64,000 nt of DNA from contig JAWLHY010000010.1 of the NCBI GenBank assembly GCA_041690135.1, positions 122,110-186,109 of the forward strand, read 5' to 3'. Source of the stretch: Armatimonadota bacterium. GTDB taxonomy: Bacteria > Armatimonadota > SYMT01. The position numbers and the translations under genes were made by a program. The notes beneath the pieces are model-generated. The model was not told the origin of the DNA, ran no database searches, and worked only from the letters and a program-made list of their open reading frames with translations. Below, piece after piece: positions 5,240 through 50,055 of this stretch (its first letter is position 1; every line of letters starts with the position of its first letter).

Positions 5240-5436
5240 GTTGACCACGGGCTTGCCCGCGTGGGAACGCGCGGAATGGCACGCAAAGGACACCATGGGT
5301 GGAAAGCGGGTCGGAGGGCAGGCCCCCTACTCTGCACCCACACCTGGAATTGCCTGTTTTGCTGCTCGCCTTTGCGCGCCATATTGCTTCTCCAAACAGG
5401 AAGTGACGATACCTGGCCCTACGGAGAAACGTCGTA

Positions 5437-5916: not shown

Positions 5917-5925
5917 AGCGTGTGA

Positions 5926-9020: not shown

Positions 9021-9062
9021 CCTGTCCTTTGCGAATGGGTGCCGGGTAAGAACAGCGATCCG

Positions 9063-15722: not shown

Positions 15723-18070
15723 CGTTTCCCACCCGCCCGCTTGAGGTGGCGGACCACCTGAGTGTGACCTTCCTCTTCCGCCATCGCGAGCGCCGTCTTC
15801 CCATCCTTCGCGCGGAGTGCGGCGTTAGCCCCCTTCGCCAGCAGGAGCTTCACCATCTCCAGGCGTCCCGCGCTTGCCGCGCTCATCAATGCCGTGTGGC
15901 CGTCGTCCGTCCGCGCGTTGATCTCGGCGCCCTTCGCCAGAAGGAGCCCGGCAATCGCAAGGTTCCCCTTGTGCGCCGCCGCCATCAGAGGGCGGGCGCC
16001 CATCTCGACGGGCACGTTCGGCCGAGCGCCGCGCCCCAGGAGCATGCGGGTCACTTCCGTCTCGTTGCGGTAGACGGCGATAAAGAGAGGGCTTCCGATG
16101 GGAGTCTTCTGGTTCGGGTCCGCGCCGCTCCGGAGAAGGAGCCGCACCAGATCCGCCCGCGTCCACTGGTCGGCGAGCAGTCCCTCCGCCAGCTTTTCCG
16201 CCAGTTCCCCGAGCTTCTCCGGGTTTGGGACCCGCTCCAGGGCGCGGCCGACCGCGTCGGCGGCCTTGGGCGGAAGAAGCGGCTCCGAGGGTGCGGCAGG
16301 CTCGGGAAGCGGCTCCCGCGCGGCGGCCGGCTCCGCCTGGCGCGGGTCATCTCGATCCGGAGCAAGAGCCAGGAACAACGGGGTACCTCCCCGCGCACTG
16401 GCGAGGTTCGGGTTCGCGCCTTTCTCGAGCAGCAGCCGGACGAGGTTCAGGTCCTGCATACCGGATTGCGCCCAGCGCAAAAGTGCGTGGTGCAGCGCGG
16501 TGTTTCCGTCAGCATCTTTCGTGTTGGGGTCCGCCCCATTCGCCAGCAGCATCCCCGTGATCTCGGTGTTGGCGCCGTAGGCGGCGAGCATGAGGGGCGT
16601 CACCCCTCCCTGGTGCCGGGTGTTCGGGTCCGCCTTCGCCTCCAGGAGAGCCCGTACCCCCTCCTCCGGGCCGAAGAGCGCCGCCTGGTAGAGCGCCGTG
16701 TTGCCGGCCGCGTCCTTCGCGTTCGGGTCGGCCCCTTTCTCCAGCAGCATCCGGATCAGCGTCTCACTGTGGGCGTTCGCCGCCTGGACGAGGGCAGGCG
16801 TACCCTGCTCATCCTTCTGGTTCGGGTCGGCACCGCGCTCCAACAGCGCGCGGGCGGAGACGGCGTCTTCAGCCTCAATGGCGGCCAGAAGATCCTTATG
16901 GGGAAGCTCCGCGCCGGCCTTCACGAGCACCTCCACGACCTCCGGGTTATCTTGCTGGCCCGCCTTCAGGAGGGGAGTATTCCCCTGCGCATCGCGAGCA
17001 TTCGGCGAGGCCTTACGCTCCAGGAGCAGCTTGACCGCGGCCACTGCCCCATGCTCGGCCGCTTTGAGGAGGGGCGTAACGCCGGTGCTGTCTGCGGCAT
17101 TTGGGTCGGCACCTTTCTCCAGGAGCACCTGCAGCACCTTCGGTTCCTCCAGGGTGGCTGCCGCGTGGACCGCGGTCGCGCCCTGCTCGTTCCGCGCCCG
17201 GATGTCCGCGCCCTGTTCGATCAGGAGCCGGACGATCTCGACGAACCCCCCATCCGCCGCCGCCATCAGAGCGGTCTGGCCCGAACTCGTAGCGGCATTG
17301 ACCTCCGCCCCCTTCGCCAGGAGCGTCTGAATCAGCGCGGCATCACCCAACCGCGACAGCGAGATGAGCGGCGTCTCGCCCTCTCGGTTGCGGACTTTCA
17401 CCTCGGCGCCGCGTTCCAGCAGGAGCCGGGCCAGATCCGCCGTCTCGGCCAGAGCGGAGAGCATCAGCACCGAATCGCCGTCGTAGTCCCGGGCATTGAG
17501 GTTCGCGCCGCGTTCCAGCAGCAGGCGCGCCGTTTCCAGTTGGCCGGTCTGCACGGCCCAGGCGAGCGCGGTGAGCCCCCGGTTGTCCCGCAACTCCAGC
17601 GCGGCGCCCCGATCCAGCAGCAATCGGACCAGTTCGACGTGGCCGTTCCCGGCGGCCTGCATCAGGGCGGTGGTGCCGTCGTTGTTTTCGGCATCTATGT
17701 GCGCCCCGCCATCCAGGAGCGCGCGGGTGAGGGGGAGATGGCCCGCATGGGCTACGAGAGAAAGCACCCGGAAGCCTTCCCGATCCACAAGATCGGGGTC
17801 AACTCCCTGCGCCAGGCGCGCGCGGACACCCGCTACATCCGCGGCCGCCAGCAACGCCAGCAGGCTGGGTGGGGATTTCGGCACGGCCTTGCGGGCAGGC
17901 GCCGGCCGTGTTCGGGCAGGAGCCCGGCGTGTCTTTCCCGGAGCGGTATGCGCCGGTAGGGATGCGCCGAGGATCGCCAGGAGAGCAGTCGTCGCAGGCA
18001 GGAAACGGTGGTGCATTCGGGGCGACATGGCTTGGCCTCGCTCGAGACGGATTCCAGGTTGCCCGAACAA
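15719..18070 (-). CDS. Ankyrin-repeat protein (about 20 repeats) with N-terminal signal-like segment
   Basis: Tandem ankyrin units (DGTTALMQAAGNGHVELVRLLLDRGA, GQTALMAAADGGFVEIVRLLIEQGADI and many more); true start may be an internal Met (MSPRMHH.. or MHHRF..). Confidence 0.85.
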   Translation of the reverse strand: MFGQPGIRLERGQAMSPRMHHRFLPATTALLAILGASLPAHTAPGKTRRAPARTRPAPARKAVPKSPPSLLALLAAADVAGVRARLAQGVDPDLVDREGFRVLSLVAHAGHLPLTRALLDGGAHIDAENNDGTTALMQAAGNGHVELVRLLLDRGAALELRDNRGLTALAWAVQTGQLETARLLLERGANLNARDYDGDSVLMLSALAETADLARLLLERGAEVKVRNREGETPLISLSRLGDAALIQTLLAKGAEVNAATSSGQTALMAAADGGFVEIVRLLIEQGADIRARNEQGATAVHAAATLEEPKVLQVLLEKGADPNAADSTGVTPLLKAAEHGAVAAVKLLLERKASPNARDAQGNTPLLKAGQQDNPEVVEVLVKAGAELPHKDLLAAIEAEDAVSARALLERGADPNQKDEQGTPALVQAANAHSETLIRMLLEKGADPNAKDAAGNTALYQAALFGPEEGVRALLEAKADPNTRHQGGVTPLMLAAYGANTEITGMLLANGADPNTKDADGNTALHHALLRWAQSGMQDLNLVRLLLEKGANPNLASARGGTPLFLALAPDRDDPRQAEPAAAREPLPEPAAPSEPLLPPKAADAVGRALERVPNPEKLGELAEKLAEGLLADQWTRADLVRLLLRSGADPNQKTPIGSPLFIAVYRNETEVTRMLLGRGARPNVPVEMGARPLMAAAHKGNLAIAGLLLAKGAEINARTDDGHTALMSAASAGRLEMVKLLLAKGANAALRAKDGKTALAMAEEEGHTQVVRHLKRAGGKR

Positions 18071-20131: not shown

Positions 20132-21610
20132 CTAATGTGCCGGAGAAAGGTCGAGAGCCCCCGCCTTGTCGTGGATGGCCACCCGCTCGACCAGGTCCTG
20201 GCACGCCGCGCTGACCCCATCCAGGCGGGCCTTCACGCCCCGGCGGCGGTACGCGAGAATGATCTTATCCAGCATGGCGATGCTCGAGGCATCCCATACA
20301 TGGGCGGCGCTCAGGTCGATTACCACTTCCTCAACCTTCTCATCCATTTCGAACCGGCCCATCAGGTGGTTCGCCGATACGAAAAAGAGCTCGCCGCTCA
20401 GCCGGTAGGTGCGCACCCGTCCATCCGGGCTCAACTCGGAGTGGAGGGAGGCGAGCTTGGCCACCTTGCGCGCAAAGAGGAGAGAGCTGAGGACCACCCC
20501 GACCAGCACTCCGCGGGCGAGGTCGTGCGTGGCGACCACCGCCACGACGGTAGCCACCATTACCAGTCCCTCTCCGCGCGGCTCGATCCGCATCCGGCGC
20601 AGGCAGGCCCAGTCGAAGGTGCTGATGGAAACCATGATCATCACGGCGACCAGGGCCGCCATGGGGATCCGGGTGAGGATAGGGCTGAGCACCAGGATGA
20701 AGAGGAGCAGGAACAGGCCCGCCGCCAGCGAGGAGAGCCGTCCGCGTCCGCCGGATTTCACGTTGATGACGGACTGGCCGATCATGGCGCAGCCCGCCAT
20801 GCCGCCGAAGAAGCCCGTAACTACGTTCGCCACGCCCTGGCCCATCGCTTCCCGGTTCTTGTCGCTCCCGGTGCCGGTCATATCGTCCACGATCTGTGCC
20901 GTAAGCAGCGACTCCAGGAGCCCGACCATCGCCAGCGTGACCGACACGGGCGCGATGATGCCGAGCGTTTCCAGGTTCAGCGGAACGCCGGGGAGTTGGA
21001 AAAACGGGAGCGTGGTGGGCAGCTTGCCCATGTCCCCCACTGTCGGCAGGTCCCAGCCGAGCAGCAGCGTGAGGCCGGTGACCACGCCAATCGCGACCAG
21101 GGGCGCCGGCACCGCCTTCGTGACCCGGGGGAGCAGATAGATCACCGCGAGGCCCAATGCCACCATCGCGTACATCTGCCAGCCCATGCCGCGGAAGTGG
21201 GGCAACTGGGCGAGGAAGATGAGGATGGCGAGCGCATTCACGAATCCCACCATCACGCTGCGGGGCACGAAGCTCATGTAACGCGCCAACTTGCAGGCGC
21301 CAAAGACCACCTGGACGATGCCGGTGAGCACGGTGGCGGCAAAGAGATAGGACAGCCCATGATCACGAACGAGGTGGACCATCAACAGGGCCATCGCTCC
21401 GGTGGCCGCGGAGATCATCGCCGGACGTCCCCCGACAAAGGCAGTGACCACGGCGATACAGAAGGAGGCGAACAGTCCTACCTGGGGGTCAACGCCCGCC
21501 ACAATCGAGAAGGCGATGGCTTCGGGAATGAGGGCCAACGCAACGACCAGGCCGGACACCAGGTCGCCGCTCACATTACCGAACCACTGTCGCTTGGCAG
21601 CTTCCTGCAC
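20132..21610 (-). CDS. SulP-family anion transporter with C-terminal STAS domain
   Basis: Polytopic membrane protein ([25 protein letters not shown]..) plus C-terminal STAS-like domain; start proposed at GTG 21608-21610 preceded by aaggag SD (ORF-track ATG at 21769 is further upstream). Confidence 0.8.
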
Positions 21611-21942
21611 AGAGAGGCTCCTTTTCAAGAGATCGGAAACGGAATGACGCAATGAGACCGTGCTCAACGGAAGACGAAACGATCGTCGGGTCGCCGCTTT
21701 AAAGACAAGGGCGGCGGAAAGAATCGGTCTTCCGTCCGTGAGCGGGTCTAGAGACGGTACAGCAGTCAACCTGGTGGTAGGGTGATTGCCGGTCCCTTCG
21801 TCATTGAAGGAGGGAAGGACACAACGCGGAGGACCGGGCGGTCCGGGGGCCCAGCAGTCCAGAGGGAACGAAGGCGGGGACGCGACGCGTGGCAGCCTGA
21901 CGCGCCAGTATGCCGGAAGCGGTCCGGCAAGTCAACCTAAAA

Positions 21943-22054: not shown

Positions 22055-22903
22055 GTGACCAACGAGGAGATCGCAGCTCGGTTGGAGGAAACCGCCGACC
22101 TTCTGGAGCTCGACCCCGGCGCGAACCGGTACCGGGTGGGAGCCTACCGCGAAGGCGCGGCTACTCTCCGTCAGGTCCAGGAGCCAGTCGAGGATATCCT
22201 GGCGAAATCCGGCCAGAAGGGCCTGCGCCAGCTCTATGGAATTGGCGAAGGGCTGGCCGGTTCCATCCGGGAACTGGTTGAAACCGGGCACCTGGGTCTC
22301 CTCGACCGACTCCGTGAGGAAGCGGAGCCGGAGCGAGCCTTCACGACGCTCCCCGGCGTGGGACCGAAGCTGGCGACGCGCATTCACCAGCAGTTGGATG
22401 TCGAAACGCTCCCGGAACTGGAACGGGCGGCTCACTCGGGGCGGCTGCGGGAAGTCGCGGGGATCGGGTCGAAGCTGGAGCGGCATATCCAGGAGGCCCT
22501 ACAGGCACGTCTCCAGCGGCGGCCGGCATCCAGCCGGAAGCCACCCGTGGAAGAGATCCTGGACGTCGACCGCGAATACCGCGAAAGGGCGGCAGCGGGA
22601 CGGCTGCGGCGGATCGCACCCCGGCGGTTCAATCTCGAGGGAGAAACCTGGCTGCCCGTGTTGAACAGCCACCGCGGGGAGCGGAGATACACGGCCCTCT
22701 TTTCGAACACCGCGTTGGCCCACCAGTTGAACAAGACGCGCGACTGGGTGGTCCTTTACTACGCGCTACCGGGTGAGCCGGAGGAGCAGGTGACGGTGGT
22801 GACGGAGTCCAGCGGACAGTGGGCGGGACGGCGGATGATCCGGGGGCGCGAACAGGAGTGCCTCCGCTTTTACGAGTTGTCGGAACGCGCCGCGGCAGCT
22901 TGA
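22055..22903 (+). CDS. PolX-family N-terminal (8-kDa/HhH) DNA-binding protein lacking polymerase catalytic domain
   Basis: N-terminal 150 aa resemble PolX lyase/fingers region (EIAARLEETADLLEL..NRYRVGAYREGAATL, TLPGVGPKLATRI, IGSKLERHIQEAL); no palm or PHP domain; GTG start with ggaggg SD. Confidence 0.75.
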   Translation: MTNEEIAARLEETADLLELDPGANRYRVGAYREGAATLRQVQEPVEDILAKSGQKGLRQLYGIGEGLAGSIRELVETGHLGLLDRLREEAEPERAFTTLPGVGPKLATRIHQQLDVETLPELERAAHSGRLREVAGIGSKLERHIQEALQARLQRRPASSRKPPVEEILDVDREYRERAAAGRLRRIAPRRFNLEGETWLPVLNSHRGERRYTALFSNTALAHQLNKTRDWVVLYYALPGEPEEQVTVVTESSGQWAGRRMIRGREQECLRFYELSERAAAA

Positions 22904-22962
22904 GCTATGTCACGGATAGCAGCACTTCCCGCCCCAGCACCAGGACCAGCAGCCCGGGGTAG

Positions 22963-23241
22963 AGCGCGAACTTCACCCGCGGCCTGGCGGAGCAACTCAC
23001 GGAAAAGGGGATCCGGGTGAACGCTGTTGCCCCTGGCCCGGTGTGGACGCCGCTGATCCCGGCTTCCTATCCGGCCGAACAGCTCCATTCGAGCTTTGGC
23101 GCCACGACACCGATGAAGCGAGCCGCCCAACCGGCGGAGATTGCACCGGCGTATGTCTACTTCGCCTCCCAGCAGGATAGCTCGTACGGCTCCGGCGAGG
23201 TACTGCTGCAGACCGGCGGAAAAATTATCGGCCGCGAGTAG
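22963..23241 (+). pseudogene. Short-chain dehydrogenase/reductase (SDR) C-terminal fragment, gene remnant
   Basis: In-frame translation after a TAG at 22960-22962: SANFTRGLAEQLTEKGIRVNAVAPGPVWTPLI..PMKRAAQPAEIAPAYVYFAS, matching the SDR region downstream of the YxxxK site; no N-terminal Rossmann part upstream. Confidence 0.6.
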
Positions 23242-23551
23242 ACCGCCCGCCGTTCACTCTCTTCCTTCACGAACTTTGACAGTCGCCGGTCAGGGAGCAT
23301 GGGATCTCCATGCCCTCCGCCCGGCGACTTTCTTGATGCTTCACTCTCCAGCATCTGCCGTTTGTAAAGCCTTGCCTGCGCGGCGGGACCGAGGCGGAGC
23401 CGTCCGGAAAAACCAACCCTGATTTAGAGGAGCATCGTGTAGATCCGCTCCAGTGAATGTGGGAGATCCTACTACAGCCTGGAATAGCCCTTGTCTGGGT
23501 AACACCCGAGCAACAGGCTCGCAGACATGGATATGGATGAAGGAAGGGCGA

Positions 23552-24064
23552 ATGTCGGAGACGCACCAAGTGGGAGCTCTGCAAATTGGTGACGACCTCG
23601 ACTTCGTGCGGCGCACCTGGAAGTTCCAACGGGCCGGATGGGTGGTGATGGCCCTGGTGATCCTTGCTGCTCTCCTGGGGGTATTCGGCAAAGGGCCGCT
23701 CAGCACCGCGCGGGTCGGTGAGGCGGGCCAGGCTTTGTCGGTGGAGTACCACCGGTTGTGGCGGTACCGGAAGCCGGACGATATTACCCTCCACCTGGGC
23801 TCACAGGCCACCACCGGGCGGGAGGCCCGCGTCTGGCTCGCCAGCGATTACGTGGACAAGCTCGAAATCGAGTACATCACTCCGAACCCGGACCGGGTGA
23901 TCGCGGGTAGTGATCGGGTGATCTACGTGTTCAACCTCGCCCAGCCGGGCCAACCGGTCTCCATCACCTTCAATTTCTCTCCACAGCATGTGGGCGCACT
24001 GGAAGCGCAAGTGGGCGTGGTGGATGGACCGGCGCGCGGGTTCACGTCTTTTTACTACCCGTAG
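23552..24064 (+). CDS. Hypothetical single-pass membrane protein
   Basis: ATG 23552 with aggaaggg SD; one transmembrane segment (AGWVVMALVILAALLGVFG); no recognisable domain. Confidence 0.5.
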   Translation: MSETHQVGALQIGDDLDFVRRTWKFQRAGWVVMALVILAALLGVFGKGPLSTARVGEAGQALSVEYHRLWRYRKPDDITLHLGSQATTGREARVWLASDYVDKLEIEYITPNPDRVIAGSDRVIYVFNLAQPGQPVSITFNFSPQHVGALEAQVGVVDGPARGFTSFYYP

Positions 24065-24088
24065 GCCCGAGGAGAAAGGAGAGGGGCG

Positions 24089-24568
24089 ATGGACGCCGTA
24101 CTGCGCGCCGCCGCGATCTATAGTTTCTTGCTACTGCTGTTCCGTATTGCAGGGAAACGTACGTTCCAGGAGATGACTCCCTTCGACTTCGTCCTGCTGC
24201 TGGTGATCGGAGAGTCCACGGAGCATGCCCTGCTCGGGGATGACCGGTCGGTGACGCACGGGCTCTTGCTGATCACCACGTTGGTCGGCCTGGACGTGGC
24301 AATGTCCCTCTGGAAGCAGCGTTCACAGCGCGTGGAAAAGCTCCTGGATGGTGTTCCTCTCATTCTCGTGGCGGAAGGGCAGCTCATCCGGCAGCACATG
24401 GAGAAGGAGCGAGTGGACGAGGTGGACCTTCTGGAGAGCGCGCGCCGTCACCACGGGTTGGAGCGCCTGGACCAGATCCGCTATGCCGTGCTGGAACCCG
24501 GAGGCGGCATCACGATCATCCCTGCGGAAGAGACGAGCAAAGCCGCGCAGGATCGAATGGCGGCCTGA
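24089..24568 (+). CDS. DUF421 (YetF-like) membrane protein
   Basis: LRAAAIYSFLLLLFRIAGKRTFQEMTPFDFVLLLVIGE typical of DUF421 N-terminus. Confidence 0.8.
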   Translation: MDAVLRAAAIYSFLLLLFRIAGKRTFQEMTPFDFVLLLVIGESTEHALLGDDRSVTHGLLLITTLVGLDVAMSLWKQRSQRVEKLLDGVPLILVAEGQLIRQHMEKERVDEVDLLESARRHHGLERLDQIRYAVLEPGGGITIIPAEETSKAAQDRMAA

Positions 24569-24743
24569 TCCAGGGAGTGAGACAGACGGTTGGCGCCTCG
24601 CGAAATGGGGAACTAACCCCAGCGGTAGCCCACCGACATGCGGTTCAGGAGTAGACCTTCCGAGCCCCAATGGAGCCAGGGAAGGGGCATTCGGGATTGA
24701 TGCCCCATGCAATGACCGGTGGGCTTCGGCAGGAACGGGGGAT

Positions 24744-25850
24744 ATGCAGCTGAAGACCGGAGTTCTCACCTTCCATCGTTGTTTCAACTACGGCAGTTAC
24801 TGGCAGGCGCGGTGCCTGGTCGAAGCGTTCCGGGAGCGGGGTCATAACGCGGTGCTGCTGGATCACCAGTCCCCCCGGGTGGAGCGTGCCGAGCGCAAGT
24901 GCGGCTTCGAGCCCGTCTTGCCGACTCCCGTTCCGCGAGAGGATCACTTCCTGTACGGGCGCAAGATCGCAAAGTTCCAGCGCGCGTTCGCCGCACTACC
25001 GCGATCATCGCGGTTCCCGCTGGATCAGCCGGAAAAGTTGCCCAGGTTCGACCTGGTGGTCGTGGGCAGCGACGAAGTGTGGAACCTCCGGCACCCGTGG
25101 TACGCCCGGTTTCCCCTCTTCTTCGGCGAGGGGCTGCCGGCTAACCGCCTGGTCTCCTATGCGGGGAGCTTCGGGAACTATCATGCCGCCGAGGGTCTGG
25201 ACCGCGAGTGGTCGGAGCGGCTGCGGTCCTTCGAACGGCTGTCGGTGCGCGATGAAAACTCCCGGGTCCACCTCCGCTGCGCACTCGGGGTCGAGCCGGA
25301 GTTGGTCCTCGATCCGTGCCTGCAATTTCCCGTCCGGCCGGAGGGACGCTGGCGGGGTCCGCGCGAATCGTTTGCCCTGGTTTACGGACACAACTTCCCG
25401 GAGACCTTCGCCGGGCAGGCGCGCCGGTGGGCGGCCGAGAGGGGCCTGCCCCTGGTCAGCATCGGTTACCGCAACGACTGGGCCGACCGCCAGTGGATCA
25501 CCGCCGGACCCCATGATTTCGCGCAGGCGATGGAGCGCGCCGCGGCCGTGATCACCAACTTCTTCCACGGCTGTGTCTTCGCCCTGCGGAACGCCAAGCC
25601 GTTCATCTGCGGGCTCACTCCGTATCGTTCGATCAAGGTGGAGAACCTACTGGCAACGGTCGGAGGCGAAGAGCATCTGGCCACTGAAGCCACCGGATAC
25701 CCGGAGTATGCGGACCGTCTCAACTCCCCAGTGGATCCTTCCATCCTCCGCCGCATGGATGCGCTCCAGCGGTCGTCGGAACGGTTTCTCGAAGAGATCG
25801 CCGGAAAGGAGGCTAGCTTGCAGGCTCGAATGGAAGGGGCCGCGGCATGA
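24744..25850 (+). CDS. Polysaccharide pyruvyl transferase family protein
   Basis: MQLKTGVLTFHRCFNYGSYWQARCL N-terminus characteristic of PF04230-type pyruvyl transferases; ORF-track start 24348 rejected as upstream extension; SD aggaacgggg before ATG 24744. Confidence 0.8.
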   Translation: MQLKTGVLTFHRCFNYGSYWQARCLVEAFRERGHNAVLLDHQSPRVERAERKCGFEPVLPTPVPREDHFLYGRKIAKFQRAFAALPRSSRFPLDQPEKLPRFDLVVVGSDEVWNLRHPWYARFPLFFGEGLPANRLVSYAGSFGNYHAAEGLDREWSERLRSFERLSVRDENSRVHLRCALGVEPELVLDPCLQFPVRPEGRWRGPRESFALVYGHNFPETFAGQARRWAAERGLPLVSIGYRNDWADRQWITAGPHDFAQAMERAAAVITNFFHGCVFALRNAKPFICGLTPYRSIKVENLLATVGGEEHLATEATGYPEYADRLNSPVDPSILRRMDALQRSSERFLEEIAGKEASLQARMEGAAA

Positions 25851-27253
25851 CCGAAGCGGCGCGCGCAAAGGGGCCCGAAGCCATCAGTCCCGCCCAGGTC
25901 GTGCACTCCGGTCTGTGTATCGGATGCGGAAGTTGCGTGTCGCAGGCGCAGTCCCCGGATGCACTGATCGTGCTGGATGATTACGGGCAACTTCGGCCCA
26001 GTGGACCCCCGGATTGGTTCCGCTCGAGGTCGGAGGTACTGGCGCGGACTTGCCCGTTCTCACCCACCGCACACAATGAAGACCGGCTGGCCGCGGAGTT
26101 GTTTCCCGAGGTCGAGCAGTATCCGGACATCGGCCGGATGCGGGGCGCTTACGTGGGCTATGTCGAAGAGGTGGGCTTCCGCGACCGCGGCAGCTCCGGG
26201 GGCATGGTGAGCTGGGTCCTTTCCGAACTCCTGCGCGCCGGCAAGGTGGATGGAGTTGCCCACGTGGTGCCGGTGGATGATCCACAGCAGGATGGACGCT
26301 TCTTTCGCTACCGGATCTCGCGCACGCCGGAGGAGGTGTTTGCCGGGGCCAAGTCCCGCTATTACCCGGTAGATCTCTCCGGAGTGCTGCAGACCATCCG
26401 GGCCCATCCGGGTCGCTATGCCGTGGTGGGGGTGCCCTGCTTCATCAAGGCGCTGCACTTGCTCCGGCAGGAAGATCCAGTGGTGCGCGAGCGGGTAGTG
26501 TACACCCTCGGACTGTTCTGCGGGCACATGAAGAGCGCACGCTTTGTGGAGAGCTTCGCCTGGCAGATGGGGGTGGACCCGCGGGAGGTGCGGAAGGTGG
26601 AGTACCGCCTGAAGGACCCCAACCGCCCCGCCAGTACGTACACCACCGAGTTGACGCTGCGGGACGGGACGGTGGTGAAACGCGACTGGTGGAACCTGGC
26701 CGACGGAGACTGGGGCGCGGGCTTTTTCCAGTATTCCGCCTGCAACTTCTGCGATGATGTAATCGCGGAGACCGCGGACATCTCCTTCGGCGATGCGTGG
26801 GTAGAGCCCTACTCCTCGGACGGAAGAGGCACCAACGTGGTAGTGACCCGGTCCGCGGAGATGGAGACGCTGATTGCCGGAGGGATCGACCAGGGCCGCC
26901 TTAGTCTGCAACCGGTGGACAGTGAATTTGTGGTAGCGACCCAGGCCGCGGGGTTCCGGCAGCGGCGTGAGGGCCTCTCCTACCGGTTGTCCTGGCCCCG
27001 GCTGGGGCTTCGTCCCCAGAAGCGCGTGGCACCCGACACCCGGCATCTCAGCCGGCGCCGTAAACTCATCTACCGGATGCGGCACCTGATCAGTGCGTGG
27101 AGCCATCGCATGTCCTGGCTCGCGCAAAGAACGGGGCGACCGGAAATCTATGTCCGATGGGCGCGGACTTCCCTGGCGCTCTACCACGGGCTGGCCTACT
27201 CACGTGGACGCATCGGCGAGATTCTCTCACGAGTTCGAGGGTTGCAAGAGTAA
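25847..27253 (+). CDS. Coenzyme F420 hydrogenase/dehydrogenase beta-subunit-like (FrhB-like) Fe-S flavoprotein
   Basis: CIGCGSC ferredoxin-like cysteine cluster at N-terminus, FrhB N/C-like regions (YVGYVEEVGFRDRGSSGGMVS, GLFCGHMKS, CNFCDD); ATGA overlap with pyruvyl transferase gene. Confidence 0.8.
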   Translation: MTEAARAKGPEAISPAQVVHSGLCIGCGSCVSQAQSPDALIVLDDYGQLRPSGPPDWFRSRSEVLARTCPFSPTAHNEDRLAAELFPEVEQYPDIGRMRGAYVGYVEEVGFRDRGSSGGMVSWVLSELLRAGKVDGVAHVVPVDDPQQDGRFFRYRISRTPEEVFAGAKSRYYPVDLSGVLQTIRAHPGRYAVVGVPCFIKALHLLRQEDPVVRERVVYTLGLFCGHMKSARFVESFAWQMGVDPREVRKVEYRLKDPNRPASTYTTELTLRDGTVVKRDWWNLADGDWGAGFFQYSACNFCDDVIAETADISFGDAWVEPYSSDGRGTNVVVTRSAEMETLIAGGIDQGRLSLQPVDSEFVVATQAAGFRQRREGLSYRLSWPRLGLRPQKRVAPDTRHLSRRRKLIYRMRHLISAWSHRMSWLAQRTGRPEIYVRWARTSLALYHGLAYSRGRIGEILSRVRGLQE

Positions 27254-27273
27254 CTCCGTCCGACGAGTGAAGT

Positions 27274-28143
27274 ATGAGCCTCGACGCGTCCTCCACCGTT
27301 CTAACGTCCGAAGAGATCGACCACTTCTTGCGGTTCGGCTATGTCGTCCTGCACGATTGCTTCCCCCGCGCCCTCGCCGAAGAGTGGACCGCCGCGGCCA
27401 TGGAACGCCTGGGATACGACGCCATGGACCCCGCTACCTGGAAGCTATCGCGAGTCCATCTCCCCAGCGTGCGGACGATGGGTTTCCGCACCTTCGCCCC
27501 GCGCGCATGGCAGGCCGCCTGCGAACTGGTGGGCGGCGAGGAACGGGTGCGGCAGCCCTGCACCGTGAGCGACGGGTTCATCATCAATTTCCGGATCGGA
27601 GGCGGCCGTAAGTGGAAACCGCCCGCGCCGGACGCGGCGGCCTGGCACCTGGACGGCGACTACTTCCGGCATTTCCTGGACAGTCCGGAACAAGGCCTGC
27701 TCACCCTGATGCTCTGGTCGGATATTGGCCCGCAAATGGGCGGCACCTTCCTGGCCCGCGACTCCGTGGCGGTAGTCGCCCGCTACCTGGCAGAGCACCC
27801 TGAGGGTGTGCGACCGGCACGCCTCGAGACCCGCCGTTTGATGCAGGAATGCCGCGACTTTGTGGAGGTCACCGGCCGGGTGGGCGACGTGCTGCTGATG
27901 CACCCGCTGATGCTTCACGCCGCGTCGCCGAACCCGTCGGGCAAGCCGCGGTTCCTGACGAACCCGCCACTCGCGCTCAAGAAGCCGCTACAGTTTCGGC
28001 GTGTACGAACTAGCTACTCTCCGGTGGAGCAGGCGGTGCTGCTAGGATTGGGGGCTTCCGAGTACGCGTTTGCTCCTACGGCGCCACGGCAGCGGATCAC
28101 CCCGGCGCGAGTGCGGAACCAGCGCAAAATGGGAGTGGGATAA
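27274..28143 (+). CDS. Phytanoyl-CoA dioxygenase (PhyH) family protein
   Basis: LTSEEIDHFLRFGYVVLHDCF N-terminal signature and WHLDGDY iron-binding-like motif. Confidence 0.8.
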   Translation: MSLDASSTVLTSEEIDHFLRFGYVVLHDCFPRALAEEWTAAAMERLGYDAMDPATWKLSRVHLPSVRTMGFRTFAPRAWQAACELVGGEERVRQPCTVSDGFIINFRIGGGRKWKPPAPDAAAWHLDGDYFRHFLDSPEQGLLTLMLWSDIGPQMGGTFLARDSVAVVARYLAEHPEGVRPARLETRRLMQECRDFVEVTGRVGDVLLMHPLMLHAASPNPSGKPRFLTNPPLALKKPLQFRRVRTSYSPVEQAVLLGLGASEYAFAPTAPRQRITPARVRNQRKMGVG

Positions 28144-28216
28144 GGAAGTCAAGATAAGGACAAGGAGGGTTGATAAGGAGGGTGGATAAGGATCAGGTTG
28201 AGGATGAGGAAAATGG
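28139..28216 (+). repeat. GGA-rich direct-repeat array (4x GATAAGGA plus GAGGATGAGGA)
   Basis: GATAAGGA at 28139-28146, 28153-28160, 28172-28179 and 28185-28192; eight GGA triplets within about 75 nt starting at the PhyH stop codon. Confidence 0.8.
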
Positions 28217-28234
28217 TACCGAGATGGGAGCAGA

Positions 28235-28270
28235 GTGATGTGGGCGCGATAAAGCAAGGCCCCACATCAC
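28235..28270. terminator. Stem-loop (10-bp stem gtgatgtggg / cccacatcac, 16-nt loop) between convergent genes
   Basis: Exact reverse-complement arms at 28235-28244 and 28261-28270; weak T run follows on plus strand. Confidence 0.45.
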
Positions 28271-28309
28271 CCTTTCGCAAACACAGCTTCCATGGGAGAC
28301 TTGGGCAGA

Positions 28310-28756
28310 TCAGTGGGAGTTGACAAGATGCCGGTCACCTCTTTTCTCCAACTCCTCGACAGGTATCGGTTGGGCCTGACAATAGCGCCGGATGAGGTCC
28401 AGGATGCGGGGCCAGTGCGCGGGCTTGGTGACCGCCGTGATCGACCCGGGATAGACGCGCGTGTCGAGCCGGTCCGCAACTCCCGAGATGACGCAAACCG
28501 GAATCGAGGCGTCGAGCGCCTGCTGCCGGGAAAGGAATTCCCAGCCCGTCATCACCGGCATCATCAGGTCCAGCAGGATCACGTCCGGCCGGCAACCAGC
28601 TTCCAGCACGTCCAAGGCCTCACGGCCGTTGGTTGCCTGCCAAACGCAGTAACCTTCTTCCTCCAGGAGCTCCGATACTGACTCTCGGATGTCCGGATCG
28701 TCCTCCACCAGCAGGAGGGTGCCGGCAGATCGAGAGCGGTGGCCGTCGTTGAACAT
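28310..28756 (-). CDS. Stand-alone response regulator receiver (CheY-like) protein
   Basis: LLLVEDDPDIRESV..DVILLDLMMPVMTGWEFL..TKP receiver motifs; no output domain. Confidence 0.8.
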   Translation of the reverse strand: MFNDGHRSRSAGTLLLVEDDPDIRESVSELLEEEGYCVWQATNGREALDVLEAGCRPDVILLDLMMPVMTGWEFLSRQQALDASIPVCVISGVADRLDTRVYPGSITAVTKPAHWPRILDLIRRYCQAQPIPVEELEKRGDRHLVNSH

Positions 28757-29216
28757 GGTCCCTCCTCATTTAGCCTTCGCCTCGTTCTACCGGGAGAAGC
28801 CCCCTTCCAAAACCCCGGTACCCGACACTTCTCACGGATCTTCGGGCGCTACCCGGCCGTAGCCTCCGCTCTCCACGGAGCGCCAGGACTGTGAGTGCCA
28901 ACCCGATTGGACTCCGTGCCGCGATCGATGCACCCACAACGCGATAGAATCACCCGTGCTCAAGCCCGCACTAGGGGGCAGGTGGGATTACCTGTGAACT
29001 TCTGGAGACACTGGCGGATGCGCACCGCCACGAGCCGCCTCGGAATGAAATTCCGCGGCAACTACGGAGTAAACCCCTCCCATCCCCCATTCGTGGGTAC
29101 CCGGCCATGAGGCGGTGTTAGCACCGCACAAGACCGGATCAAATTGTCCACTGTTGCTTTCAGCGCCCCCTACCTTGCCCCGGATAGCGTATCCGTACCC
29201 CTTGGAGCGGTCCCCC

Positions 29217-30497
29217 ATGTTCAAGAGATCCACTTCCTCCCCTACCAGCCCAGCCAGGATCCCGAGGCGGCGTTTTGTGGCTTTAGCCGCCGGCCTGGTG
29301 GTAGCGGCCGGCCTTTCCGGATCCGCCGTTCCGGCACAGGCACCGCCGCCGGTGCTGATCAACACAAACTTTCCCGGCGCCTCGCTGGGGAAGGTGGAGA
29401 AGCTGGGTGAGACGGAGTTCCGCTGCCATGTACCCGGCCAGTACGACGAGCGCGGGCGCAACCGGCAGACAACCTGGTACTACTTCCGCATGGACCGCGT
29501 CCGTGGACGGGAGCTTACGATCACCCTGACCGATCTCGTGGGCGAGTACAACGACAGGCCGGGCGCAGTACCCATGAACGCGGACACAGTGCCGGTGTGG
29601 AGCGCGGACGGTCGCCGGTGGACGCATTTCGCGGGGTACGCGTGGAACGACCAGACGAAAGAAGCGACCCTGCGGATTCGGCCGGAGTCCGACACGCTCT
29701 GGATCGCGCATCAGCCGCCCTATACGCCGGAGGATCTGCATCGCCTCCTGGCGGACGTGGACCGCTCCCCTTCGGCCCGCGTCGAAGTCATCGGGAAGAC
29801 GGTCCAAGGGCGGGACCTGCACCTGGTGACGGTCACGGACTTCGCGGTTCCGGACTCCGGAAAGAAAACGGTGTGGCTCCAGGCCCGGCAGCACGCCTGG
29901 GAGTCGGGCACCTCGCACGTGCTGGACAGCGCCCTGCGGTTCATCACTTCCGAAGAGCCGGACGCGCGGGAACTGCGGCGGAAACTGGTGTTCAAGTTCC
30001 AGCCGATGGGCGACCCTGATGGGGCCGCCAACGGGAAGGTGCGCTTCAATGCCAACGGCTACGACGTGAACCGCCACTGGGAGGAGGTCGACCTCCGCGA
30101 CAAGACTCTTCTTCAGCGGATGCCGGAGATCTGGTACGTGAAAAAGGCCGTACTCGCCCAGTCCGCCGTGGCGCCGATCGACTTGCTGGTGAACATGCAC
30201 AACACCGAGACCGCCGAGTACATCGACACCCTGGCGGACAGCGGACCCGCTCGGGAGGTGGTGGAGCGGTTCTACCGGGGGCTGGTCGAACGCACCCGCT
30301 TCGACCCCAGCCGGCCCCCTACCTATGCCGCCGGGAAGGGCTCCACAAACTCCCTTTACCTGGAGACGAAGTCCCCGGTCGTGCTGATGGAACTGCGGAT
30401 CGGCACGAGCAAAAAGCTGGGGCGCCGCCCCACGGTGGAAGATCGCGTCCGTTTCGGGCCGGAACTGCTGAGGGAAATGGCGAAAGCAGTGTTGTAA
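29217..30497 (+). CDS. M14-family zinc carboxypeptidase-like protein with Tat signal
   Basis: Start at MFKRSTS (ATG 29217, SD ggagcgg); RRRFVALAAGLVVAAGL leader; HAWESGTSH and NRHW motifs consistent with M14 fold. Confidence 0.75.
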   Translation: MFKRSTSSPTSPARIPRRRFVALAAGLVVAAGLSGSAVPAQAPPPVLINTNFPGASLGKVEKLGETEFRCHVPGQYDERGRNRQTTWYYFRMDRVRGRELTITLTDLVGEYNDRPGAVPMNADTVPVWSADGRRWTHFAGYAWNDQTKEATLRIRPESDTLWIAHQPPYTPEDLHRLLADVDRSPSARVEVIGKTVQGRDLHLVTVTDFAVPDSGKKTVWLQARQHAWESGTSHVLDSALRFITSEEPDARELRRKLVFKFQPMGDPDGAANGKVRFNANGYDVNRHWEEVDLRDKTLLQRMPEIWYVKKAVLAQSAVAPIDLLVNMHNTETAEYIDTLADSGPAREVVERFYRGLVERTRFDPSRPPTYAAGKGSTNSLYLETKSPVVLMELRIGTSKKLGRRPTVEDRVRFGPELLREMAKAVL

Positions 30498-33691: not shown

Positions 33692-34981
33692 CTACTCCGC
33701 GGCGGGCATCAGTTCGCGCACTGGTTCCGGATCGTCGAGCACCTGCATTGGCCGCTGCTCGCGGTCCGGGATCGTCGTGTAGGGATCGATTCCCAGGTGG
33801 CGGTATAGGCAGGCAATTACGTTGGCGGGCGTGTAAGGCACTCCGGTGGAATGGCCCCCTTCCGCATCCGTTTCGCCGATGACCTGACCCACCCGGAAGC
33901 CGCCCCCGGCCAACACTGCCGCGCCCGCGTCCGGCCAGTGGTCGCGGCCGGCGATGCGGCTGATCCGGGGCGCCCGGCCGAACTCGCCCCACATTACCAC
34001 CGCCACGTCATCTTGGAGGCCCCGGTCGTAGAGATCGGTGATCAGGGCATGGATTCCCTGGTCGAGTTGGGGCAACTGCTCGCGCATGTCACGGAAGTTG
34101 TGCTCGTGAGTATCCCAGTCCCCAACCTTCAACGTGACTACGGGTATTCCTGCTTCCACCAGGCGGCGGGCCAGCAGGAACCGCTTGCAGAACTCCCCAT
34201 AGCGAGCGACTGTTTGCGTTGACTCCCGGCCCAAATCGAAGGCGGCGCGGGCCTGGGAAGAGAGGACCATCTCCATGGCACGCGTCGTAAAGGCATCTTG
34301 CCCGGCGGCGGCTTCGGTGCCTTCGAAGCTGCGGTGGAGGGCTTCCAGACGTTCGCGCAGCCGACGTCGCGTCAAGAAGCGTTCGCCGGACACGCCCCGT
34401 GGCAGGCTCAAATCCGCCAGGGCCTCACCTTCCGGTACAAAGGGACGGTGGGCGGAGCCGGTGTAGGTGGGGTTCTCATGGGTCCCATCCTCACGGTACA
34501 TCATGCTCACGTAAGGCGGAAGCCCGTCCGATCGCGGGTGCAAGTAGCTAACGACGGAACCAAAGGCGGGACGCTTGCCGCGATCGGGAAACCCTGTGAC
34601 GATGTAATGCGGCGTGTGGTCGCCCAGGTCGTTGGACCTGATCCCGCGCAAGACAGCCAGCCGGTCCATGATTTGTGCGGTCCGCGGCAGGTACTCACAA
34701 ATCCGGATGCCGGGGACATTCGTCGGAATGGGGTTGAACTCGCCCCGAATCTCGGAGGGTGCGTCCGGTTTCATGTCAAAGCTGTCGATGTGTGACGGAC
34801 CGCCGCGCAGCCAGATCATAATGACCGCTTTGCCCTTACCGAATCCGGGGGCGGCTTCAGCCCGCAGGCGAAGAAGATCCGCCAGGGAGAGGCCGGTGAA
34901 ACCGAGACCGCCGACCCGGAGCAACTCTCTGCGGGTGATCCCATCACACAGTTTCGCCCCGTGCCCCAGAATGCGCAGCAT
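33692..34981 (-). CDS. DUF1501 (sulfatase-like) protein with Tat signal
   Basis: Start at MLRILGHGAKLCDGITRRELLRVGGLGFTGLSLA; DWDTHEHNF and GRDHWP motifs typical of DUF1501. Confidence 0.85.
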   Translation of the reverse strand: MLRILGHGAKLCDGITRRELLRVGGLGFTGLSLADLLRLRAEAAPGFGKGKAVIMIWLRGGPSHIDSFDMKPDAPSEIRGEFNPIPTNVPGIRICEYLPRTAQIMDRLAVLRGIRSNDLGDHTPHYIVTGFPDRGKRPAFGSVVSYLHPRSDGLPPYVSMMYREDGTHENPTYTGSAHRPFVPEGEALADLSLPRGVSGERFLTRRRLRERLEALHRSFEGTEAAAGQDAFTTRAMEMVLSSQARAAFDLGRESTQTVARYGEFCKRFLLARRLVEAGIPVVTLKVGDWDTHEHNFRDMREQLPQLDQGIHALITDLYDRGLQDDVAVVMWGEFGRAPRISRIAGRDHWPDAGAAVLAGGGFRVGQVIGETDAEGGHSTGVPYTPANVIACLYRHLGIDPYTTIPDREQRPMQVLDDPEPVRELMPAAE

Positions 34982-35079
34982 CGCAACTCCTGCCTTTCGA
35001 GCGAAGTGTAGATCAGTTTGCCTTTCTGTCCTGTGAGTGCGTTGACTGGGTTCAGTTTCAACGGAATTGGAGTGTTCAA

Positions 35080-36564
35080 ATGGGCCTTCGAAGAGCGGTC
35101 CTATCGCTGTGCCTTGCCGCTTCCTTTGCGGCGCTTGCCGCACCTGGAACGGCCTTTCAGGCGAAGGCGGCGCGCAACCTCGATCCTGCTCAGCAGTCGA
35201 TGCTGCGCTACCTGGACACGATCACGCCGGAGTTAGTGGCGATGAACCAGGATATCTGGAGCTACGCGGAAGTCGGCCTGGAGGAGAAGCGTTCTTCGAA
35301 GCGGCTCTCGGACGCGCTGGAGAAGGCCGGGTTTCGGGTCCGCCGGGGAGTGAGCGGGATGCCCACGGCCTTTGTGGCGGAGTATGGGTCGGGCAAACCG
35401 GTGATCGGTCTGCTTGCCGAATACGATGCCCTGCCGGAGCTGTCGCAGGAAGCCGTGGGCGAACGGAAGCCGGCGCCGGGGCGGGCGAACGGGCATGGCT
35501 GCGGTCATTCCGCCTTCGGGACGGCGGTGGTCGGCGCAGCCCTGGCGGTGCGCGAGGCCTACGACCGGTCCGGACTGAAGGGTACCATCCGGGTCTATGG
35601 GACTCCGGCCGAAGAGACCCTGATCGGGAAAGTGTACTTGGCCCTGGATGGTCAGTTCAACGACCTGGACGCCTGTCTCCACTGGCACCCGGCATCGAAG
35701 AACAAGGTCAGCTACGGCAGCAGCAAAGCCATGATCTCGGCCAAGTTCAAGTTCGCGGGGCTCCCGGCGCACGCGTCCGGAAGCCCGCACCAGGGGCGGA
35801 GCGCGCTGGACGGGGTCGAGTTGATGAACATTGGCGTGAACTACATGCGGGAGCACGTGAAGGAGAGCAGTCGCATCCATTACGTGATCACCAACGGCGG
35901 AGGACAGCCGAACGTGGTCCCTCCCACCGCCGAGGTGTGGTACTTCATCCGCGCCAACACCCACGATGACGCGGAAGCGAACTTCGACTGGATCCGAGAG
36001 ATCGCCGAGGCAGCGGCGAAAATGTCGCGGACGAAGGTAACCGTTCAGATCGATACCGACTGCCACGAGGTAATTCCCAACCTGCCGCTCTCCCGGGTGG
36101 TGCAGAAGAACCTGGAGGCCGTCGGCGCGCCAAAGTTCGACGAGGCCGACCGCAAGCTGGCCCTGCAACTCCAGTCCGACCTGCGAAGCCAGCCGGGTTT
36201 CAATGAGAAAAACCCGCTGCATGAGAGCGTGGACAAGCTGCCGGAGAAGCCGACGGGGGCGACCGGTGGAAGCACCGACGTGGGCGACGTGAGCTGGCTG
36301 GTGCCCACCGCCGGGTTCAACGCCGCCTGCTTTGCGGCCGGGAGCCCCGGCCATAGCTGGCAGAACGTGGCCGCCGTCGGCTCCCCCATCGGTCATAAGG
36401 GAATGCTGGTGGCGGCCAAGGTGCTGGCGCTGAGCACGGCCGACCTGCTTCAGGACGCAGCCGTGCTCAAGGCGGCGCGGGCCGATTTCGACCGCCAGAT
36501 GAAGGACCGGAAGTACACGACCCGGATCCCCAAGGGACAGAAGGCGCCGGCAAGTATTCGGTAA
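35080..36564 (+). CDS. M20-family amidohydrolase (AbgB-like) with signal peptide
   Basis: NGHGCGHSAFG metal-binding motif, GTPAEE, overall M20D-like; ggag SD before ATG. Confidence 0.85.
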   Translation: MGLRRAVLSLCLAASFAALAAPGTAFQAKAARNLDPAQQSMLRYLDTITPELVAMNQDIWSYAEVGLEEKRSSKRLSDALEKAGFRVRRGVSGMPTAFVAEYGSGKPVIGLLAEYDALPELSQEAVGERKPAPGRANGHGCGHSAFGTAVVGAALAVREAYDRSGLKGTIRVYGTPAEETLIGKVYLALDGQFNDLDACLHWHPASKNKVSYGSSKAMISAKFKFAGLPAHASGSPHQGRSALDGVELMNIGVNYMREHVKESSRIHYVITNGGGQPNVVPPTAEVWYFIRANTHDDAEANFDWIREIAEAAAKMSRTKVTVQIDTDCHEVIPNLPLSRVVQKNLEAVGAPKFDEADRKLALQLQSDLRSQPGFNEKNPLHESVDKLPEKPTGATGGSTDVGDVSWLVPTAGFNAACFAAGSPGHSWQNVAAVGSPIGHKGMLVAAKVLALSTADLLQDAAVLKAARADFDRQMKDRKYTTRIPKGQKAPASIR

Positions 36565-39700: not shown

Positions 39701-40004
39701 ATACTGTTGACTTGCGTGGGGTGGACGGTGGCGCCACGCGGTTGGTCGGCGCAGGGGTCGCGGACGTGGAGGAAGCCGCCGGAATGGCGGTAACGCCCTG
39801 CTCCACGTAGCCTTTCTTGACCTTCTCGGCGATCAGCTTTTCGGCGGACTTCTGCGCCTCCGCCTCCGAGCCGAACTCCTTGGTCTGCGTCTGCCCGGTC
39901 GTTCCGATTCGCCCGTACTGGACGGTATAGCCGGCGTCCTCGACCGATATCCGCCAGAACTTGTGCGAACTGCCCTCGCTGAATTGGAACTCTCTCGTCG
40001 CCAT
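36738..40004 (-). CDS. WGR-domain + DUF4132 protein (MolR-like), 1088 aa
   Basis: N-terminal MATREFQFSEGSSHKFWRISVEDAGYTVQYGRIG..KGYVE is a WGR domain; long C-terminal region resembles DUF4132. Confidence 0.75.
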   Translation of the reverse strand: MATREFQFSEGSSHKFWRISVEDAGYTVQYGRIGTTGQTQTKEFGSEAEAQKSAEKLIAEKVKKGYVEQGVTAIPAASSTSATPAPTNRVAPPSTPRKSTVSGKPQAPTSSADETGQGEAQIDEAVVTAPKTNPPSSAHVSRSLDLKSEDWQWATWRPRTPRSLPEAPPFDLDEAAARLSKVTTSHYGWTWAWEKARIAPKLTREEAHFWALAMSARPKDFAPKDLARHLIVWGRGSAKDGSEFLKALKALGLPESTSGEVDHSQRAQALKQRGFTGEITLEEITTRVEQQMAHTPGHLIVPLVNLFSVPVVLEWLLARDEEFRNQSWWGNYWSNRSQAFGQGFRTLVLPFLTEAELTQVRDLVRPQVQPHLWSSPRPAAFFFAAITGMHEELRAVVEAWPDDQFGGQYAYYYDRPMEILFGLGEPRLVESHMRRLKLRLHLPEYVGAWLAHTEYGALDVVHDAVATAENKEAAEQLLEAFAAVKAPEAAPHMLELTVSSKAGRPARQWLEAHPEHAVVGLIPTAAGRGKLAELAAEYLRALGRKGAKALIQAALEQAPADVAEKVRSLLEEEGSALDPLDEASTPTWLREALAAATGKKKAAPPQWVSPADLPLIAIGDRCLSQAQVQEVLGALQRDPLGEPGPLLQGLRKHVDRGSLNRFAWRLFELWLADGAVSKEKWAMTALAHLGSDASALKLAPMVRAWPGESQHQRAVLGLECLRAIGSDTALMLINGIAQKVPFKGLKTKAGECMEAIAKDRGFTRPQLEDRIVPTCDLDERGTRTFDFGPRQFRFVLGPGMKPMLREADGKVRPDLPKPNAKDDPALAAQATEEWKLLKKQVGDVVKTQVVRLEQAMVTGRRWPREDFENLLVRHPLMTNLVRLLVWGAYDADGNLAATFRVTEEQSFADQQDEPISLDGYPEVGLVHPLHLSEEDKQAWGELLGDYEIVPPFAQLGRPISSLEPAEKVAEELCRWTNLEIAPQSLVFTLEKLEWQRGIPEDAGIFYSHSKPFYGANVTAVVEYEEGVPVGYMDGWDNQTVTRCFFVPGIWRPEMYPDHKDRVPLASVDPVVISEVLTDLTIVAAKAVQ

Positions 40005-40212
40005 TCACCTACCCCCGGCCGCATCATTGCAACACTCGTAACCTGTTTCCTGCCGGGACCGCCTGGTCCTCCCTCCCGCCGTGGAGGCGAACTCAAGGGT
40101 GAGGGCGCCGGGCTCATAAATCCCTGTAGGTCTGCCAAGCACCCGCCTATAATCTGTTTACCTGTGGCAAGGTCTGGCATTTGGAAGCCGTGGCATAGTG
40201 TGTGAGGCCAAG

Positions 40213-42321: not shown

Positions 42322-42330
42322 GAGGCCATC

Positions 42331-50015: not shown

Positions 50016-50055
50016 ATAGCAGGGTCGTGCACTTGCGGAGAAAGAGTAAGTTCAG

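Follow-up and report, generated by a model that had tools for sequence, protein, structure and literature searches.

A widespread pyruvyl transferase/FrhB-like gene pair and an adjacent PhyH-type dioxygenase gene in an Armatimonadota genome

Introduction

Polysaccharide pyruvyl transferases of the PF04230 family include WcaK, CsaB, EpsO, ExoV, GumL and Pvg1p. In the FrhB family, BciB and HCAR are stand-alone substrate reductases. Enolpyruvyl transfer followed by flavin reduction is exemplified by MurA/MurB and FbiD-FbiA/FbiB. The PF04230 names given above derive in part from a review (PMC6801904). Here, we analyze a 64 kb stretch of DNA (G+C content of ~64%; contig JAWLHY010000010.1), referred to as the window, from an Armatimonadota bacterium. 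In this window, a PF04230 gene (A) is followed by a gene for an FrhB-like flavoprotein (B) and by a gene for a PhyH-type Fe(II)/2-oxoglutarate (2OG) dioxygenase (C) (Table 1). An initial annotation had interpreted the three genes as a three-enzyme tailoring module with an unknown substrate. Based on our analysis, A-B is very probably an orphan copy of a widespread two-gene cassette that puts a three-carbon acid on a hydroxyl of a sugar or a glycosylated cyclitol, and C is an independently distributed neighbor.

The Klebsiella capsules provide a described setting in which genes of these kinds are found together. Capsular types K8, K22, K37 and K66 carry pyruvyltransferase genes, and their capsules are not pyruvylated (PMC4616057). 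K66 alone has a gene annotated as coenzyme F420 hydrogenase (HG203), which is listed beside its unique pyruvyltransferase gene wcqF, while K22 and K37 alone have the pyruvyl transferase gene wclZ together with a nitroreductase gene (HG127) (PMC4616057). The K22 and K37 capsules bear a lactyl group on C4 of glucuronic acid (4-O-lactyl) (PMC4616057).

Conservation of the A-B gene pair

The best 80 genomic loci for B, with flanks of up to 10 kb, were searched by tblastn. In all 80, the B homologue is immediately preceded by an A homologue in the same orientation. These loci belong to Armatimonadota, Abditibacteria, Chloroflexi, Bacteroidota, Alpha-, Beta- and Gammaproteobacteria, Actinobacteria and others, i.e., to at least six phyla, over which the B orthologues are 56-75% identical; the A homologues upstream of them are 48-65% identical to A of the window. 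The same adjacency was also found in loci L004, L086 and L090. The closest B homologues (73-75% identity) all have A upstream, and the gene after B varies among these closest pairs, being a short-chain dehydrogenase (SDR) gene in L006, a beta-lactamase-family gene in L086 and a gene for a beta-helix protein in L005.

The A-B junction could be assessed in 74 loci, with the start codons of B chosen heuristically. The two genes overlap or are separated by a gap of at most 11 nt in 72 of them, and the 4-nt overlap found in the window recurs in 28. This start-stop overlap suggests translational coupling. Additionally, FrhB-like genes that are only 25-30% identical to B overlap PF04230 genes in the Wzx/Wzy loci of Parabacteroides distasonis and Dinoroseobacter shibae. 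The co-occurrence of pyruvyl transferase and FrhB-like genes in polysaccharide loci, which had been put forward in the initial annotation, is thus a general pairing. Both the window and its relatives display the layout of a two-gene cassette, with A immediately before B, in the same orientation and with an overlapping or minimal junction, and A-B is among the most rigidly conserved gene pairs that could be tested here.

Usual genomic context and orphan placement

All open reading frames (ORFs) of the 79 usable A-B loci were clustered. In 69 of these loci, the pair is accompanied by conserved partner genes, which in many cases include glycosyltransferase families. The most frequent partners encode a histidine phosphatase (67 of 79 loci) and a Glyco_hydro_cc-like protein of ~325 aa that resembles TIM-barrel hydrolases (65 of 79). 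Less frequent are a methyltransferase recognized by TIGR04290 (48 loci; 394.7 bits, cut-off 300), a protein like those of glycosyltransferase family 9 (GT9; 37 loci), a zinc-dependent alcohol dehydrogenase (Zn-ADH) and a Gfo/Idh/MocA protein (24 loci each), a family 4 glycosyltransferase (GT4; 23 loci), PF13524 glycosyltransferases (20 loci, with as many as three in one locus) and a ~590-aa protein that has no Pfam match (20 loci). Myo-inositol-1-phosphate synthase forms two ORF clusters, each present in 19 of the 79 loci. Examples of the partner cluster can be seen at 282-11377 of L004, at 10929-25356 of L108 and in most of L007-L085.

In Fimbriimonas ginsengisoli, the partner cluster adjoins Wzx-type, Wza-type and NeuB genes. 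Sinorhizobium meliloti 1021 carries the pair on pSymB (NC_003078.1, 257932-259287). In an annotated S. meliloti plasmid with a pSymB-type cluster, the pyruvyl transferase gene is followed, in this sequence, by those for 'coenzyme F420 hydrogenase', 'beta-xylosidase', histidine phosphatase, inositol-3-phosphate synthase, a hypothetical protein, Gfo/Idh/MocA, Zn-ADH, a small hypothetical protein, two epimerase/dehydratases and, after a gap, GT4 and a further glycosyltransferase. No description of the product of this cluster was found in the literature searched.

None of the partner genes was detected in the 64 kb window, either by tblastn with partner representatives or by Pfam scans, and the pair thus stands outside such a cluster here. 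The tblastn searches only returned a weak match to a different methyltransferase gene (50987-52108) and an SDR fragment described below. The methyltransferase gene was rejected as the TIGR04290 partner, with an identity of 27-37% and a distance of 24 kb from the pair.

Orphan pairs of this kind make up 10 of the 79 loci (~13%), at least seven of them with full 10-kb flanks. Their neighbors include genes for a peptidase, an aminotransferase and ALAD, for a histidine kinase and a serpin, and for ABC transporters. The orphans are scattered over the identity range of B and do not form one group, which indicates that the orphan placement arose repeatedly. B of the window is 65-69% identical to cluster-embedded copies, being as similar to these as to other orphans. 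In the simplest interpretation, the pair of the window performs the same chemistry as the cluster copies, with the acceptor-building genes located elsewhere in the genome. The absence of glycosyltransferase genes near the pair had been taken as a sign of an unknown substrate. This inference of a non-glycan substrate is weak because the orthologous pair has partners in 69 of 79 loci and orphans recur in unrelated lineages; the missing glycosyltransferases are the recurrent orphan layout and not evidence for a new substrate class.

Distribution and features of the dioxygenase gene

No C homologue was found by tblastn within 10 kb on either side of A-B in any of the 80 loci, including those of the closest A-B homologues (L006, L086 and L090). 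Conversely, neither A nor B is present in any of the ~9 informative C loci. A metagenome scan with C yielded 16 loci, few of them informative, with homologues that are 40-44% identical. Both the best B match listed in the genome scan and the C homologue that is closest among those with usable context come from the metagenome-assembled genome (MAG) GCA_046292385.1, and there the pair and C are on different contigs. The three genes are therefore not a module, since C is found at none of the 80 A-B loci and A or B at none of the informative C loci. The tailoring module proposed in the initial annotation stands as far as the A-B unit is concerned, and it does not extend to the PhyH gene; that annotation had itself named a lack of co-conservation of the three genes as grounds for discarding the module, and this is what the loci display. 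C is a local neighbor of the pair in this genome only, possibly co-transcribed with A-B, and not a conserved module member.

C belongs to a well-conserved family of ~297-aa proteins with 1421 homologues, of which the best 120 listed are 52-84% identical to it. It matches the PhyH profile PF05721 (E-value 7.3e-8, 33.4 bits, cut-off 22), and H125-x-D127, H215 and R226, which make up the HxD...H...R site, are invariant among the homologues. Its AlphaFold2 model has a mean predicted local distance difference test (pLDDT) score of 91.4, and the top Foldseek matches are GriE, proline hydroxylase, SnoK, EctD, KanJ and PhyH. C thus combines the profile, the fold and the 2-His-1-carboxylate triad with the 2OG-binding arginine of a PhyH-type Fe(II)/2OG dioxygenase, while no sequence match in the PDB and no NCBIfam match was obtained. 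Judging from these residues and the predicted fold, C is probably an active dioxygenase.

The neighbors of C homologues differ from locus to locus. A homologue of 75% identity (L001) lies beside an AbiE pair and a DAO/Rieske gene, one of 74% identity (L087-L089) beside a gene for a protein like glycoside hydrolase family 2 (GH2), and one of 60% identity (L002) after a sulfatase gene and two GT9 genes. At 5551-8885 of L087/L088, the C homologue (74%) overlaps by 4 nt the end of the GH2-like gene, which encodes an 817-aa protein of the beta-mannosidase type. Based on the GH2-like, sulfatase and GT9 neighbors, the substrates of the C family may derive from carbohydrates.

Protein features of A and B

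A matches PF04230 (PS_pyruv_trans) with an E-value of 2.4e-27 and 97 bits, well above the gathering score of 25.3, and the match covers most of the domain (profile positions 1-275 of 280), as expected of a family member. Across 81 sequences, 58 of its residues are at least 97% conserved. No sequence relative of A was found in the PDB and no NCBIfam model matches it.

B carries both domains of the FrhB/FdhB family, FrhB_FdhB_N (PF04422; E-value 2e-18, 66.7 bits, cut-off 22) and FrhB_FdhB_C (PF04432; E-value 6.9e-36, 123.8 bits, cut-off 23.3), together with the conserved cysteines and the glycine-rich motif of that family. C24, C27, C30 and C69 (CIGCGxC...CPFS), C198, C225, C299 and C302, as well as the SSGG motif at 116-119, are invariant across 41-81 homologues, and G115 is at least 90% conserved. 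From the sequence, we infer that the cysteine and SSGG motifs are the Fe-S cluster and flavin sites, respectively. The AlphaFold2 model of B (pLDDT 85.5) has FrhB-family modules and Arabidopsis HCAR (5dqr) as its top Foldseek matches, with E-values down to 2.9e-18, and B is 14-20% identical to the solved members.

No hydrogenase or Fpo genes were found in the window or in the related loci examined. B also falls far short of the NCBIfam thresholds for FrhB and FpoF; it is therefore a flavo-Fe-S oxidoreductase of the FrhB-like kind rather than part of a hydrogenase. It probably binds flavin adenine dinucleotide (FAD) and [4Fe-4S] clusters, and with its invariant Cys and SSGG motifs and its FrhB/HCAR-like predicted fold it looks like an active redox enzyme. 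Since B occurs in phyla not known for F420, its electron donor is likely to be a different one.

Genomic setting of the window

Genes were called with the coding signature in third-position GC content (GC3) as an ORF filter, which left three consecutive plus-strand genes, each with this signature and with Pfam matches above the cut-offs (Table 1). The three enzyme families reported in the initial annotation are therefore present, and so are the DUF421 and response-regulator genes that it placed at the flanks, both of which lie outside the module. The ATGA at the start of B is likewise real, as read directly from the sequence, although it joins A to B and not, as had been proposed, the pair to the dioxygenase gene: B ends with TAA at 27251-27253, which leaves a 20-nt spacer before the start of C. 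A longer ORF for A, from 24348, was rejected, as it overlaps the upstream YetF gene and homology support for it is absent, and an antisense ORF at 26060-27187 is without the coding signature.

Table 1. Genes of the A-B-C region and its flanks, in window coordinates
Feature	Position	Strand	Description
YetF/DUF421 membrane protein gene	24089-24568	+	PF04239 and PF20730; upstream flank, outside module
Gene A	24744-25850	+	368 aa, PF04230 polysaccharide pyruvyl transferase family
A/B overlap	25847-25850	+	ATGA stop/start
Gene B	25847-27253	+	468 aa, FrhB-like flavoprotein with Fe-S motifs
Gene C	27274-28143	+	289 aa, PhyH-type Fe(II)/2OG dioxygenase
Single-domain response regulator gene	28310-28756	-	PF00072; downstream flank, convergent, outside module

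No YetF/DUF421 homologue was found by tblastn in any of the 80 related A-B loci, and the receiver-domain matches in these loci were weak and scattered. The Pfam scans of the window covered 50 ORFs, nearly all those with a coding signature. Among them, there was no glycosyltransferase, flippase, polymerase, export or sugar-nucleotide gene, in agreement with the initial annotation, and no complete Wzx/Wzy or ABC exopolysaccharide locus; the families found include PSCyt, PSD, DUF1501 and DUF1552, WD40 and ankyrin repeat proteins, transporters, kinases and peptidases. An M14 carboxypeptidase gene lies near the pair both in the window and in L011, and the two proteins are barely similar, so that we treated this as a coincidence. 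Promoter and terminator scans stayed at background level, with no terminator-like site predicted between B and C, and no Rfam match was obtained in 23000-29500.

Approximately 1.5 kb upstream of the pair, on the plus strand at 22948-23232, we localized the C-terminal ~95 aa of an SDR (…GIRVNAVAPGPVWTPLIP…QTGGKIIGRE and a stop codon), of which the N-terminal Rossmann part is missing. This fragment lies between a PolX-like HHH gene (22055-22903) and an ORF at 23453-24064, is 55-61% identical to full-length SDRs of 299-304 aa in loci L042 and L045, and has the appearance of a gene remnant. The full-length SDR gene of L045 is located directly downstream of the B homologue.

At the other end of the region, all four GATAAGGA copies of the window are grouped at 28139-28192 (+), with spacings of 14, 19 and 13 nt. 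The group begins at the stop codon of C and lies in the spacer that separates C from the convergent response-regulator gene. The four copies compare with 0.59 expected per window, and none of 100 shuffles reached four. They could be a protein-binding array or merely a purine-rich repeat.

Farther from the pair, positions 1-13171 and 33692-35143 carry genes of the PSCyt1/2/3, PSD1-5, DUF1552 and DUF1501 families, which are typical of Planctomycetes. For A, B and C alike, however, the nearest relatives come from a MAG labelled Armatimonadota that itself has PSCyt/PSD/DUF1501 genes beside its A-B pair. Two adjoining genes at 13272-18070 (-) encode large repeat proteins, i.e., an 816-aa WD40 beta-propeller and a 783-aa ankyrin-repeat protein. 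At 48297-50796 (+), a SulP/STAS transporter gene precedes a beta-carbonic anhydrase gene by 40 nt, an arrangement that resembles a pairing for bicarbonate transport; a second SulP/STAS gene is located at 20132-21769 (-). The gene at 36738-40004 (-) encodes a protein of 1088 aa that has WGR as its N-terminal and DUF4132 as its C-terminal domain, and after this gene, at 40198-44481, there are two genes for large PAS/GAF histidine kinases.

Proposed chemistry and alternative explanations

In the mechanism we propose, A would transfer the enolpyruvyl group of phosphoenolpyruvate (PEP) to an acceptor hydroxyl of a sugar or a glycosylated cyclitol, and B would reduce the C=C bond of the resulting enol ether, its Fe-S clusters passing on the electrons. 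The product would be a 1-carboxyethyl (lactyl) ether, instead of or besides a pyruvate ketal, and in this organism the acceptor would be built by genes located elsewhere. That a PEP-using transferase is obligately coupled to a flavin/Fe-S reductase suggests enolpyruvyl transfer and a subsequent reduction, and, by analogy with MurA/MurB and FbiD-FbiA/FbiB, such a route to a lactyl ether is quite possible, if short of probable. The Klebsiella capsule genetics described above fit this proposal as independent support. In a broader form, which we put forward tentatively, the PF04230/FrhB-like pair would be a general, self-contained two-enzyme lactyl-ether synthase, the partner cluster, which ranges from S. 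meliloti pSymB to Bacteroidota, Chloroflexi and Armatimonadota, would make a methylated, lactylated glycosyl-inositol conjugate, and the orphan pairs would act in trans on a substrate whose genes lie elsewhere.

Several points weigh against these proposals. The scores of B against the NCBIfam equivalogs are low, with 35 bits against a cut-off of 331.5 for frhB and 32 bits against one of 475 for FpoF; no biochemical study of the A-B pair was found in the literature searched; and, to our knowledge, the characterized PF04230 enzymes form cyclic ketals. A review of pyruvylation makes no mention of lactyl ethers made by PF04230 enzymes. Additionally, the lactyl group cited above is that of K22 and K37, the types with wclZ and a nitroreductase gene (PMC4616057).

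It is also possible, though somewhat doubtful, that A is a conventional ketal-forming pyruvyl transferase whose product is a pyruvate ketal and not a lactyl ether, with B in another redox role, such as the oxidation or reduction of the acceptor, a sugar or cyclitol, ahead of its pyruvylation, or electron transfer to another enzyme of the cluster. The nearly full PF04230 match of A and the ketals made by characterized members are what this explanation predicts, and the Zn-ADH, Gfo/Idh/MocA and inositol-phosphate synthase genes of the usual cluster make cyclitol redox chemistry plausible. Nevertheless, the A-B overlap and the adjacency in 80 of 80 loci persist in orphan loci that are without the other cluster enzymes, and the pairing is kept in the distant Wzx/Wzy loci, which argues that B acts directly with A. 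Moreover, in the Klebsiella types with both a PF04230 gene and a flavin reductase gene, the capsules are not pyruvylated, and those of K22 and K37 are lactylated.

An explanation that keeps all three genes together is a young, lineage-specific operon, in which C has been recruited to act on the A-B substrate, e.g., by hydroxylating the glycan or the carboxyethyl group. The position of C, on the same strand and 20 nt after B with no terminator-like site predicted in between, counts against its treatment as a mere neighbor, and C may be co-transcribed with A-B or have a lineage-specific functional link to it. Its HxD...H...R site is also intact, and two of the three closest C contexts are carbohydrate-related (the GH2-like overlap in L087; sulfatase and GT9 in L002). 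Adjacency in one genome is weak evidence, however, compared with the lack of C at all 80 A-B loci, the lack of A-B at the informative C loci, the separate contigs of the pair and C in GCA_046292385.1 and the different gene that follows B in each of the closest pairs, and we regard such an operon as unlikely. It is more improbable still that the pair is a decaying, non-functional remnant left after a rearrangement away from the cluster. The lack of the usual partner genes in the window and the truncated SDR upstream, a sign of local decay or rearrangement, are consistent with a remnant; however, A and B are full length, retain every residue that is at least 97% conserved in their families, including the Cys motifs of B, and have a normal GC3 signature, and intact orphan pairs occur in at least seven other genomes with full flanks.

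For the window itself, the result is corrective, in that an apparent three-enzyme cassette consists of a known type of gene pair and a chance neighbor; A-B is an ordinary member of a known, biochemically uncharacterized pairing. The more interesting leads are general, namely the possible lactyl-ether chemistry and the inositol-linked cluster conserved across phyla. The pair is extremely conserved and yet without an assigned chemistry. If lactyl ethers are indeed its product, the pair would supply the enzymes for a sugar modification that has long been known and explain, with proteins non-homologous to MurA/MurB, how lactyl-substituted sugars arise in many bacterial glycans. It would also offer a handle on an uncharacterized multi-phylum glycoconjugate cluster, one that a model rhizobium also carries.

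Comparison with known systems

Close counterparts of the pair lie in the inositol-phosphate-synthase clusters such as those of S. meliloti pSymB and F. ginsengisoli, to whose pairs B of the window is 56-73% and A 48-64% identical; the difference is that their partner genes were not found in the 64 kb window. With the PF04230 pyruvyl transferases, A shares an almost end-to-end profile match and, in most genomes, a location in glycan-type clusters. In contrast to these enzymes, the A subfamily is always paired with an FrhB-like gene, and the window copy lies away from sugar-assembly genes. B resembles the F420-binding modules FrhB, FpoF and Fsr-N and HCAR in both Pfam domains, in the predicted fold and in the Cys and SSGG motifs, but differs from them in an extra N-terminal CxxCxxC...CP motif and a helical C-terminal extension of ~100 aa.

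The capsular polysaccharide (cps) loci of Klebsiella K66 and K22/K37 are similar in that a PF04230-type gene is listed beside a flavin reductase gene, whereas their genes lie inside complete Wzx/Wzy capsule loci. MurA/MurB and FbiD-FbiA/FbiB offer a chemical analogy, in which the formation of a PEP-derived enol ether followed by reduction of its C=C bond would correspond to the proposed steps of A and B, but the families are unrelated, since A does not have the MurA/EPSP-synthase fold and B is neither MurB nor a nitroreductase. Finally, C shares the predicted fold and the HxD...H...R site of the PhyH-clade hydroxylases GriE, proline hydroxylase H11, SnoK, EctD, KanJ, HygX and human PhyH, while its identity to them is 11-20%, with template modelling (TM) scores of about 0.45-0.5, and C belongs to a family of its own.

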